From a virus: 64,000 nucleotides of DNA. The number at the start of each line of letters is the position of its first letter. Positions within the stretch are counted from its first letter, which is position 1. Location: the IMG/VR virus record IMGVR_UViG_3300042691_019786; one strand, 5' to 3'. This document shows positions 23,002 to 27,830 of this stretch, piece by piece. A model generated the notes under the pieces. It saw only the letters and a list, made by a program, of their open reading frames with translations. It made no database searches and was not told where the DNA came from. Made by a program: the position numbers and the translations under genes.

Positions 23002-23034
23002 AAAAAAAGCCTTGATTTGTGGTCAAGGCTTTTT
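23002..23034 (-). terminator. intrinsic terminator of the putative attenuator
   Basis: AGCCTTGA-CCACAAA-TCAAGGCT followed by a T run. Confidence 0.8.
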
Positions 23035-23059: not shown

Positions 23060-23155
23060 CTATTCTATGATGTTATTTAACATACCTTGACCGTTATGGA
23101 AACTATTGCGTCTCCAATTATTAATCGAAATCATATGTATGTTAATTGTTCTCAT
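23060..23155 (-). CDS. putative attenuator leader peptide (31 aa, not in ORF track)
   Basis: MRTINIHMISINNWRRNSFHNGQGMLNNIIE; lies between a promoter and the terminator; contains GGTCAAGGT, complementary to the terminator 5' arm. Confidence 0.75.
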   Translation of the reverse strand: MRTINIHMISINNWRRNSFHNGQGMLNNIIE

Positions 23156-25112: not shown

Positions 25113-26243
25113 TCAAAAAATAAATATATCTAGATAAAGTTTTTTAAAATTATCAGTTTCTAGTCTTTGTATTTCTTTACCTAATTCTGGTCCTTGTTTT
25201 AACCCCATCTTTGTCATTAGGTCTGAACCATTAACCGTTAATTTAAATAATAAAAATGTATCTATAATCTTTACATCAATACCACTTAATTGAGCAAATC
25301 TAGTTATTTGTTCTGCTGTTACACCAGATGTCTTTTCAGCTTTTTTAAGCGTTACAGCTGTATCAATCGACAAATTCAATAGACTAATCAAAAATGTAAT
25401 AGCTCTTATTTCATCAATTGAGTATTTTAATTTGTTCAATTGTTTTGTTAATAAATCAACTTTATTATTCTTTAACAACATTGCTAAAACAATAATTATA
25501 TCATTATCTTCAATGAAATTTTTATTAACATTAACATCTTTAAAAACCCAATCAAATAAATTGTATTTGTCAATCATTTTTAAAAACGATTTTACAGATT
25601 TTGCTGATTTGATACCTTTCAAAAACTCATCTCTGATTCTTTCACCAGATATACCTTCCAAACTAGCATCTTTTTGCAATGCAGCGTCAACTGATGGGTC
25701 TAATTCACTACCAAATCTACCAGCAAATCTAATTGCTCTTAATATACGTAATCTATCTTCACCAAATCTATCTTCAGCTGCACCTACAGTCCTTACAACA
25801 CTGTTTTTAAGGTCTTCTATACCATCAACCAAATCAACAACTTCTGACGTGTCTATATCGTAAAATAATGCGTTGATTGTTAAGTCACGTCTTTTAACGT
25901 CACCTACTATATCTGTAAAACTAACACCATCTGGTCTTCTACCGCTAGATAAGTCTTCCCTAAAAGTTGCGATTTCGTATTCACCCATATCAGTAAAGAC
26001 GTTGATAACACCAAATGCTTTACCAGTTGGTAAAGTTCTAAAACCACCTTTAGCCATTATGTCTTCCACTTGGTCTGGGATAGCATCGGTTGCCAAATCG
26101 TAATCTTTAGGTGTTTTACCTAACAACGCATCACGCACTGCACCACCTACAACATATAGGTTAAAACCATTTTGCTTAAAAACATCTTTTATTTGTAAAA
26201 TGTCTTTTGGTATTGGCATATCAAATATAATTCTCTTTTCCAT
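25113..26243 (-). CDS. cca: CCA-adding tRNA nucleotidyltransferase
   Basis: VGGAVRD..KDYDLAT, RRDLTINA, EDRLRILRAIRF, ERIRDE; the tRNAs here lack encoded CCA. Confidence 0.85.
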   Translation of the reverse strand: MEKRIIFDMPIPKDILQIKDVFKQNGFNLYVVGGAVRDALLGKTPKDYDLATDAIPDQVEDIMAKGGFRTLPTGKAFGVINVFTDMGEYEIATFREDLSSGRRPDGVSFTDIVGDVKRRDLTINALFYDIDTSEVVDLVDGIEDLKNSVVRTVGAAEDRFGEDRLRILRAIRFAGRFGSELDPSVDAALQKDASLEGISGERIRDEFLKGIKSAKSVKSFLKMIDKYNLFDWVFKDVNVNKNFIEDNDIIIVLAMLLKNNKVDLLTKQLNKLKYSIDEIRAITFLISLLNLSIDTAVTLKKAEKTSGVTAEQITRFAQLSGIDVKIIDTFLLFKLTVNGSDLMTKMGLKQGPELGKEIQRLETDNFKKLYLDIFIF

Positions 26244-26781: not shown

Positions 26782-27201
26782 TTAATTATTCGTTTTGTCA
26801 ACAAAATTTAAAATTAATTTATAAGCGTCAATAATTTTATTCATATATTCAACATTTTTAACATCATCTATCGTCAAATTACCATGTAAAAGACCAAAAA
26901 ATTTATTTATAGTTTTAAAGTGTTTTATTGCAATAACATTTTCTTTTTCATAAATTGATGAAGGAAAGAATATGTATTTCCAAACACTTTTTAAATCATA
27001 ATATTCATTTCTAAATACTTTTCTTACTTTTGATTCAACAGTGTTATCACTTTTTATAGTTATTTTAGTAACATATAATTCACCATCAACTTCAAATGGT
27101 ATTATTTTGAATAATTCACTTTTTTTATTTTTGAATAAGTGTAATTCTGTTTTAGTTAAATAATTTTTAACTTCTAATTGTTTTTGCTCTACTGTTTTCA
27201 T
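26782..27201 (-). CDS. hypothetical protein
   Basis: ORF. Confidence 0.5.
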   Translation of the reverse strand: MKTVEQKQLEVKNYLTKTELHLFKNKKSELFKIIPFEVDGELYVTKITIKSDNTVESKVRKVFRNEYYDLKSVWKYIFFPSSIYEKENVIAIKHFKTINKFFGLLHGNLTIDDVKNVEYMNKIIDAYKLILNFVDKTNN

Positions 27202-27279
27202 ATTAAATTTATTTTATTTTTAGTTATTATTTTTATACATAGACACTGTGTCTATGTTATTGTCTATGTTAAAATAAAT

Positions 27280-27309
27280 TTAAGGTGGAGCTCTGTATAT
27301 CTACATCAT
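27280..27309 (-). other. minigene M-M-(TAG)-I-Y-R-A-P-P-stop
   Basis: ATG ATG TAG ATA TAC AGA GCT CCA CCT TAA, 11 nt after the Pth2 stop. Confidence 0.6.
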
Positions 27310-27320
27310 AGTATTAAAAT

Positions 27321-27671
27321 TTAAACGTTGTTATTTATCTCCCTTCCCAATAATGGAAAAGAACTAGTTAGTCTTCTGCTAGAATCAGAAGGTTCAAATG
27401 CTATTGCTGTTATTTCATTGTTGATGTTTGGCTCTCTAAATATTGTGTACTTGATTCCTCTAGAATCAGCTTTCTCTGATAGTCTAACTAATTCTTCTTC
27501 GTTAGCGACTGTCAATAATGCCAGATAATTTGATTTTGATTGCCATTCTGTCGCTTCTATAGGATGAGCGTGTTGGAAATCTATGGCAGCATGTGCCGAT
27601 TGTACCGCTTGTGTCGGTAATGATAAGTCGCGTCTTGTGACAACTCTTAATTTTTCGTTAACCTATTTCAT
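27321..27671 (-). CDS. Pth2-like peptidyl-tRNA hydrolase with an in-frame TAG at codon 3
   Basis: ATG AAA TAG GTT AAC GAA AAA TTA...; readthrough gives MK*VNEKLRVVTRRDLSLPTQAVQSAHAAIDF...FREPNINNEITAIA (116 aa); the ORF track shows only the 3' part. Confidence 0.8.
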
Positions 27672-27723
27672 AACTTTTTTTTAATAAATATATCAATAAT
27701 AATGCCAAAGTAAACATTATTTG

Positions 27724-27794
27724 TGGTCTTAGAGGGAATCGAACCCTCACTATCGGTTTTAGAGACCGTTACGCTGCCGTTACATCATAAGACC
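27724..27794 (-). tRNA. amber suppressor tRNA (anticodon CTA)
   Basis: GGTCTTA/TAAGACC acceptor; ACGGT-CT-CTA-AA-ACCGA; GAGGG-TTCGATT-CCCTC; own TACATTTG box at 27808-27815. Confidence 0.88.
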
Positions 27795-27830
27795 AAATCT
27801 TATAGTACAAATGTACAAAAGATTTTTTAA

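Follow-up and report, generated by a model that had tools for sequence, protein, structure and literature searches.

A conserved amber-gated minigene with an arrest-like end probably links stop-codon suppression to translation of the following gene in large phages

Introduction

An in-frame stop codon can be used as a sensor of translation: prfB, coding for RF2, carries an in-frame UGA which is passed by +1 frameshifting, and this autoregulation senses the efficiency of termination. In other genes, stalling inside a leader peptide is put to use. RAPP-like arrest leaders include ApdA, ApdP, ApcA, SecM, the RQH family and CruR (PMC10951233, PMC10987492), and by the SecM-secA logic a stall exposes the start of the next gene (PMC10951233). 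The list of RAPP-like motifs includes RAPT, RAP-stop, RGPT and RGSP; most RAPP-like sequences drawn from two proteomes arrested poorly when tested (PMC10987492), and residues upstream of RAPP influence the arrest (PMC10951233).

Bacteriophages also carry suppressor tRNAs. In recoded phages (Lak, crAss-like) such a tRNA permits genes with in-frame stops, and a role in timing has been proposed (10.1101/2021.08.26.457843, PMC8346664). A UUA tRNA is present in 51 of 51 Lak genomes without other sign of TAA recoding (PMC8346664). Orphan suppressor tRNAs have been reported from jumbo phages of standard code, namely XacN1 (PMC5852040), Atu_ph07 (PMC6102473) and RsoM2USA (PMC8504454), with no target named; for the CUA tRNAs of XacN1 no target was found (PMC5852040), and the only suppressor tRNA of Atu_ph07 has the anticodon UCA (PMC6102473). 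PTH2 proteins of jumbo phages have been noted as ribosome-rescue enzymes (PMC7824862).

The present study concerns 64,000 nucleotides of viral DNA, IMG/VR record IMGVR_UViG_3300042691_019786 (the window), in which a suppressor tRNA, a Pth2-like gene and a minigene with an arrest-like end are neighbours. The parts are individually known; no description of a circuit made of such a leader and a suppressor tRNA was found in the literature open without subscription.

Results

The minigene and its surroundings

The features of the locus, in the order in which the minus strand is read, are as follows.

27808..27815, minus strand: TAnnTTTG box, putative promoter element upstream of the suppressor tRNA
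27723..27794, minus strand: tRNA with anticodon CUA, amber suppressor (ARAGORN; Rfam RF00005, 60.1 bits)
27321..27671, minus strand: Pth2-like gene, 116 codons, TAG at codon 3 (27665-27663); PF01981, 38.1 bits against a cut-off of 23
27280..27309, minus strand: amber-gated leader M-M-(UAG)-I-Y-R-A-P-P-stop; TAG at 27303-27301, RAPP codons at 27294-27283
27270..27283, minus strand: 5' arm of the proposed masking helix, made up of the final base of the Pro codon, the TAA and the next 10 nt; 14 bp, fold z -3.2
27237..27269, minus strand: inner hairpin in which ACATAGACA, a conserved motif within the masking helix, occurs twice in direct and once in inverted orientation
27203..27216, minus strand: 3' arm of the masking helix, from -15 to -2 relative to the downstream ATG, an A-rich initiation region
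26782..27201, minus strand: gene for a 139-aa protein, predicted to be controlled by the leader; its family is mostly basic and has no counterpart in Pfam or NCBIfam

The minigene that the original prediction had placed at 27280-27309 is real and its letters were confirmed; the strand, which had not been given, is the minus strand. From 27309 to 27280 it reads ATG ATG TAG ATA TAC AGA GCT CCA CCT TAA, with the amber at codon 3 as claimed when counted from the first ATG, and it follows the stop codon of the pth2-like gene (TAA, 27321) at a distance of 11 nt. Its C-terminus is RAPP-stop, an R-x-P-P-like motif. When all six frames were scanned, R[AG][PG]P occurred once in the window, at the leader. 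A relaxed leader pattern was likewise found once, at the same site, where a first-order Markov model of both strands gives 0.13 expected per 64 kb. Short contigs from RNA libraries cover parts of pth2 and of nearby genes and not the leader, the shares being small. A narrow search of species genomes of bacteria and archaea with a single pattern gave no relative.

The window uses code 11. Coding cover is 0.80 under code 11 and 0.83 under code 15, and long ORFs terminate at TAG; of the marks of a code-15 recoded phage, the CUA tRNA is present, and widespread in-frame TAG and a strong rise in coding density are absent. In the light of this module, a CUA tRNA alone is no evidence of recoding. Besides the pth2-like gene and the leader, the 64 kb yielded no gene with a credible early amber. 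With its tRNA arrays, a tmRNA and a tRNA nucleotidyltransferase-type gene, the window has the look of a piece of a very large phage, and the host is probably a member of the Bacteroidota, as judged from TAnnTTTG boxes and A-rich starts without Shine-Dalgarno sites. The phage tmRNA (32804-33164, minus strand) has a long acidic tag ending in ELAVA and could act on ribosomes stalled at the leader. Elsewhere in the window a leader of 31 codons (23060-23155) is followed by a terminator-like hairpin (23002-23034, minus strand) before a tRNA array. This arrangement looks like an attenuator, which suggests that the phage has more than one means of monitoring its tRNA supply.

Conservation of the leader

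Searches with the Pth2-like protein gave 119 distinct loci, nearly all with an early stop in pth2 and most with a CUA tRNA in the examined stretch and with a leader. Among the first 45 loci, all 44 pth2 genes with an intact 5' end have an early TAG, and CUA tRNA and leader are present in nearly all. The leader minigene is therefore conserved across related phages. In 74 distinct leaders the amber lies at codon 3 (54), 4 (8), 5 (9) or 6 (3), and the base after it is a purine in every case. At a distance of 4-8 codons past the amber, 69 of the 74 carry [R/K]-x-P, followed by Pro, Thr, Asn or stop; the five leaders that lack it count against the reading preferred below. The RAPP motif of the original prediction holds for the window, where RAPP-stop is found, but exact RAPP occurs in only 8 of the 74, RGPT (17) and RPP-stop (15) being more frequent, and the conserved element is the wider one just given. 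Variants RAPT, RAP-stop, RGPT and RGSP were all found among the homologues. Six Arg codons and four Pro codons are in use across the 74 leaders, so selection acts on the peptide, and the motif is conserved at the peptide level.

It should be noted here that the automatic classifier of gates erred at four loci (L212, L112, L130 and L184), that five upstream leaders it had missed were read by hand, and that it retained TAA and TGA leaders only with a matching tRNA or gate. In the unfiltered list, L113 and one spurious case were the sole TAA or TGA additions. In phage NCTB (L185:1893-1938) an RGPP frame upstream of a family-1 gene is one base off the ATG frame, which meets TGA at codon 5. This is possibly a +1 frameshift variant; no tRNA was found in the examined NCTB stretch.

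Matching of the stop codon to the suppressor tRNA

A CUA tRNA and a gene with the Pfam PTH2 domain were confirmed near the leader, and pth2 itself has a TAG at codon 3. Aligned with 88 homologues and with the tRNA-Trp of the window, the CUA tRNA has a Trp-like anticodon arm, discriminator A73 and no encoded CCA end. Without an encoded CCA it needs a tRNA nucleotidyltransferase-type enzyme; a gene of this type lies two genes downstream (25113-26243, minus strand). The TAnnTTTG box upstream of the tRNA corresponds to the Bacteroidota-type -7 promoter consensus; among 88 homologous CUA tRNAs, 30 have such a box in the 60 nt upstream, against a background of 5.7%. The discriminator is A in 62 of 86 parsed homologues and G2-U71 is common. 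The tRNA bodies vary widely and do not point to a charging synthetase. An importance of the pair U11-G24 was considered and rejected, the pair not being conserved.

The putative gating stop follows the anticodon of the local tRNA. A TAG leader accompanies a CUA tRNA at 85 loci and a TAA leader a UUA tRNA at 3, two of which are TAG-recoded Lak phages. At L230 the UUA tRNA goes with TAA in both pth2 and leader, and L113 also has TAA in both. In Lak-A1 and Lak-B5, where TAG is sense, a TAA leader ending in RGSP or RGP-stop comes after the UUA tRNA, together with a helix, and a pth2-like gene lies farther on. Among cultured phages, pth2 of Atu_ph07 has an in-frame TGA at codon 7 and pth2 of Phosso a TAG at codon 4. 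In XacN1, ORF364 is preceded by a Shine-Dalgarno site and by ATG AAG TAG in frame, seven codons before the annotated start, and its true start is probably amber-gated; this ORF (L184:976-1815) has a Pth2-like domain fused behind an HD-like domain. In the cultured Rhizobium phage RHph_I1_18 there are a CUA tRNA, an amber-gated and unannotated copy of a gene for 81-87 residues which recurs at these loci, and a leader, ML-amber-FKPP-stop, that precedes an ORF with its start in a stem; no pth2 was found within its examined stretch. In the cluster C mycobacteriophages Myrna (L047:1477-1485) and Catera (L048:1983-1991) the pth2-like genes start (G/A)TG TAG GTG, and the GTG past the amber could be the start instead. 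Their CUA tRNA, labelled Ser or Arg in GenBank, lies 460-610 nt downstream.

The leader is linked to the gene behind it

Spacing was analysed in 82 distinct leader units from related phages. The spacer from the leader to the next ORF has a median of 82 nt (IQR 75-89), and the distance from leader to pth2 ranges from 5 to 2140 nt, being at most 30 nt in 23 of the 82 and more than 200 nt in 48. The leader is tied to the gene behind it and not to pth2. Thus the expectation that the minigene would be conserved beside suppressor-tRNA/Pth2 loci was borne out for the leader but not for its adjacency to pth2. For a toxin-antitoxin pair the same units give a conserved neighbourhood without conserved adjacency. 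What stands behind the leader is an ORF from one of four families of small, mostly basic proteins, with no detectable homology between the families, or, at L051, pth2 itself.

For the downstream proteins no clear match came from Pfam, PHROGs, NCBIfam, the ESM Atlas or fold searches; a single uncharacterised marine phage protein matches the family of the window. The fold searches used two good models (pLDDT 87.6 and 85.9) with best Z of 5.0 and 7.2; the lack of a clear match does not show a new fold.

The stop region of the leader and the start region of the downstream gene are predicted to form a covarying helix. In the window it has 14 bp without a mismatch, between 27283-27270 and the stretch from -15 to -2 before the ATG at 27201. 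The native helix has 10.4 bp on average, against 7.2 bp when the 3' arm is taken from other loci of the same family, and exceeds the foreign-arm helix in 55 of 58 loci. The helix is A/U-rich, and as the loci are related these counts are not independent. Other genes of the window give 5.3 bp at the same geometry. Little or no helix is present at five loci (L021, L026, L050, L161 and L182).

When ribosome footprints of an assumed size were imposed on the RNA fold, the start region was unpaired at 0.46 in free RNA; placing a ribosome at the amber gave 0.48, and placing one at the motif gave 0.79. The corresponding values of the window are 0.33, 0.32 and 0.68. In this model a ribosome at [R/K]-x-P opens the start by more than 0.15 at 67 of the 79 loci, and one at the amber does so at none. 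Computationally, therefore, the predicted stall site lies on a stem that hides the next start.

The motif class of the inner hairpin occurs at 16.7 per kb in the spacers and 0.6 per kb in the window. Repeats of the TTGGACA/TAGACA type make alternative small hairpins inside the masking helix; at least two copies are present in 40 of the 82 spacers, and a copy stands immediately before the ATG in L001-L003 and L014. The repeated motif is possibly a putative protein-binding site. No terminator-like site was found between leader and gene on the minus strand, and one was found on the plus strand (27237-27257). Transcription attenuation was rejected for the leader, as its strand has no terminator.

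The Pth2-like gene and its neighbours

The GK and DAG-T motifs of Pth2 hold the catalytic Lys, Asp and Thr. The window protein has the PF01981 domain, but these motifs are absent from it and from all 17 aligned close homologues. In alignments to solved archaeal Pth2 (1rzw, 2zv3, 24bt), GK falls on a gap or TQ and DAG-T on EP(D/N)I, and the protein stays below the NCBIfam Pth2 cut-offs (NF003314, TIGR00283). It is a putative Pth2-like protein homologous to archaeal Pth2. The versions of Phosso and Atu_ph07 retain GK.

An early stop of its own is present in 100 of 103 pth2 genes that precede a leader; among those behind a leader about 12 are open and 2 gated, figures obtained in part by reading loci by hand. 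It thus appears that all genes of the unit are under the tRNA, directly or via the leader. An ORF of 81-87 residues and a tRNA-Cys often lie between pth2 and leader. This ORF, with an HFNK...IPMW motif and no family match found, overlaps the pth2 stop and is followed by the tRNA-Cys (L003:2829-3074 and many loci; L255:~1769); its counterpart in Atu_ph07 and Phosso forms the C-terminus of a longer protein. The module can contain endonuclease-like inserts, HNH-type or other (L015:1675-2475, L113, L230, L232, L240), and the insert of L015 took over the amber-containing 5' end of pth2.

Discussion

Our data indicate that the minigene is probably a cis-acting, SecM-like arrest leader, with the next gene translated only when the phage suppressor tRNA works. 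This is grounded in what was observed of its sequence, its conservation, the constraint on its peptide, the covariation of the helix, the matching of stop to anticodon and the linkage to the downstream ORF. Without suppression, a ribosome would stop at the UAG at codon 3, some 18 nt before the helix; the start region of the 139-aa ORF would stay paired and the gene would be off. With suppression, the ribosome would reach R-A-P/P-stop and pause there, covering the 5' arm of the helix, and the start region would be freed and the gene turned on, an opening so far modelled. The pth2-like gene would be gated by the same CUA tRNA through its own early UAG. Two proposals made from the sequence at the outset gain by this. 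The idea that suppression leads to readthrough into an arrest-like motif agrees with the conserved amber, the conserved [R/K]-x-P and the stop/anticodon match, and the last of the options that had been named, control of the downstream gene 26782..27201, is favoured by the tight spacing and the covarying helix. Against the arrest-leader reading stand the leaders without [R/K]-x-P, the few loci with little or no helix, tRNA bodies so varied that they point to no synthetase, the division of the downstream proteins among four unrelated families, and the poor arrest of most RAPP-like sequences from two proteomes.

The same switch might work without a true RAPP-type arrest if slow termination at a Pro-stop atop the helix opened it by translational coupling. 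The stop directly follows R/K-x-P in 28 of 69 leaders, endings in KPP, LPP or VPP without Arg also occur, and NSP-stop and NAP-stop leaders are known to arrest with a stop in the A site (PMC10987492). However, an Arg two residues before the Pro is found in 58 of 74 leaders in six different codons, it is kept even where the frame continues past the motif (RGPT..., RGSP...), and such a kept Arg fits the stacking of the RAPP Arg (PMC10951233); we regard slow termination as an unlikely substitute. It had also been proposed that the leader, the suppressor and Pth2 form a toxin/antidote or feedback circuit, in which readthrough yields stalled ribosomes or dropped peptidyl-tRNA that the adjacent Pth2 clears. 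Short peptidyl-tRNAs do dissociate readily, and Pth is loaded by two-codon minigenes, lambda bar being an example. Of 48 distinct loci found via the family-1 downstream gene, 46 have a pth2-like gene no more than 2.5 kb away, and in the window the gap to pth2 is the 11 nt given above. Against this stand the poorly conserved adjacency (at most 30 nt in fewer than a third of the units), the covarying helix over the start of the next gene, which such a circuit leaves unexplained, and a protein that lacks GK and DAG-T and falls below the Pth2 cut-offs. Moreover, leader and pth2 need the same tRNA, so the antidote would not be independent and loss of the tRNA would remove both. As the main function of the locus a toxin/antidote pair with Pth2 is not supported, and we hold the circuit to be quite improbable, though the Pth2-like protein itself may act in feedback.

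Least likely is that the leader arose as a random ORF or was left behind by an ancestor with amber recoding. Phages that recode TAG and carry CUA tRNAs are common (10.1101/2021.08.26.457843), but a credible early amber is found in only two genes of 64 kb, its position is fixed at codons 3-6, and the recoded Lak phages instead use TAA with a UUA tRNA. The chance expectation of 0.13 per window speaks against a random ORF, and both ideas are contradicted by the conservation and by the stop/anticodon matching; they are hardly credible.

As to purpose, small basic proteins and the Pth2-like protein would be made only when readthrough is on. The purpose that we favour, though we think it somewhat doubtful, is a feedback or check that reports the level of suppression, that is, mature charged tRNA against release factor, and perhaps limits or uses readthrough. 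A role as a timer would fit equally well, as would one in reporting that the host interferes with tRNAs or release factors. In a wider sense it is conceivable, with the balance tilting slightly against it, that many unrelated large phages keep a private, swappable pair of stop and tRNA (UAG, UAA, UGA) for regulation alone, as a channel through which they sense how translation is running in the infected cell. The leader would then turn suppression into translation of an effector and of the Pth2-like protein as a self-contained circuit, its inputs being tRNA maturation, charging, damage by host defence or release-factor activity. If true, such phages would possess a natural translational sensor of a new class, and their orphan suppressor tRNAs would be explained, the UUA tRNA of Lak megaphages among them. 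The module gives such tRNAs concrete candidate targets at 5' ends with a matching stop codon, and the question becomes testable in the cultured phages RHph_I1_18, Atu_ph07, Phosso and XacN1. Gene callers truncate or overlook amber-gated genes, and a natural nine-codon switch that reports stop-codon suppression may exist.

Comparison with known systems

Like the RAPP-like arrest leaders, the phage minigene is an upstream ORF ending in an R-x-P-P-like motif, where a predicted stall unmasks a next start held in a stem. Unlike them, it has only nine codons, with no N-terminal localisation or metal-sensing part; its input would be the passing of a stop codon and not a pulling force or ligand, it does not stand before sec or yidC genes, and its stalling is predicted. 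It thus falls outside the strict description of ApdA, ApdP, ApcA and RQH as longer ORFs with an N-terminal localisation signal before secA, secDF or yidC. With the recoded phages it shares a phage-encoded suppressor tRNA, whereas the window uses code 11 and has two neighbouring short-range gates, one of which is a regulatory leader and not a coding region; in Lak phages the module, with TAA and a UUA tRNA, comes on top of TAG recoding. The standard-code phages with orphan suppressor tRNAs resemble it in having such a tRNA where that stop otherwise stays a stop. Unlike in those reports, candidate targets can be named here, and these are 5' gates (XacN1 ORF364, Atu_ph07 pth2, the Lak TAA leader). 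The window protein shares the Pfam match of the Pth2/PTH2 family (PF01981), but with GK and DAG-T replaced or deleted and with an early stop codon in its gene. The likeness to prfB lies in an in-frame stop used as a sensor of termination efficiency; in prfB the stop is bypassed by a +1 frameshift with no tRNA or leader, whereas in the phages a suppressor tRNA would read the stop and a leader would pass the signal to the next gene.
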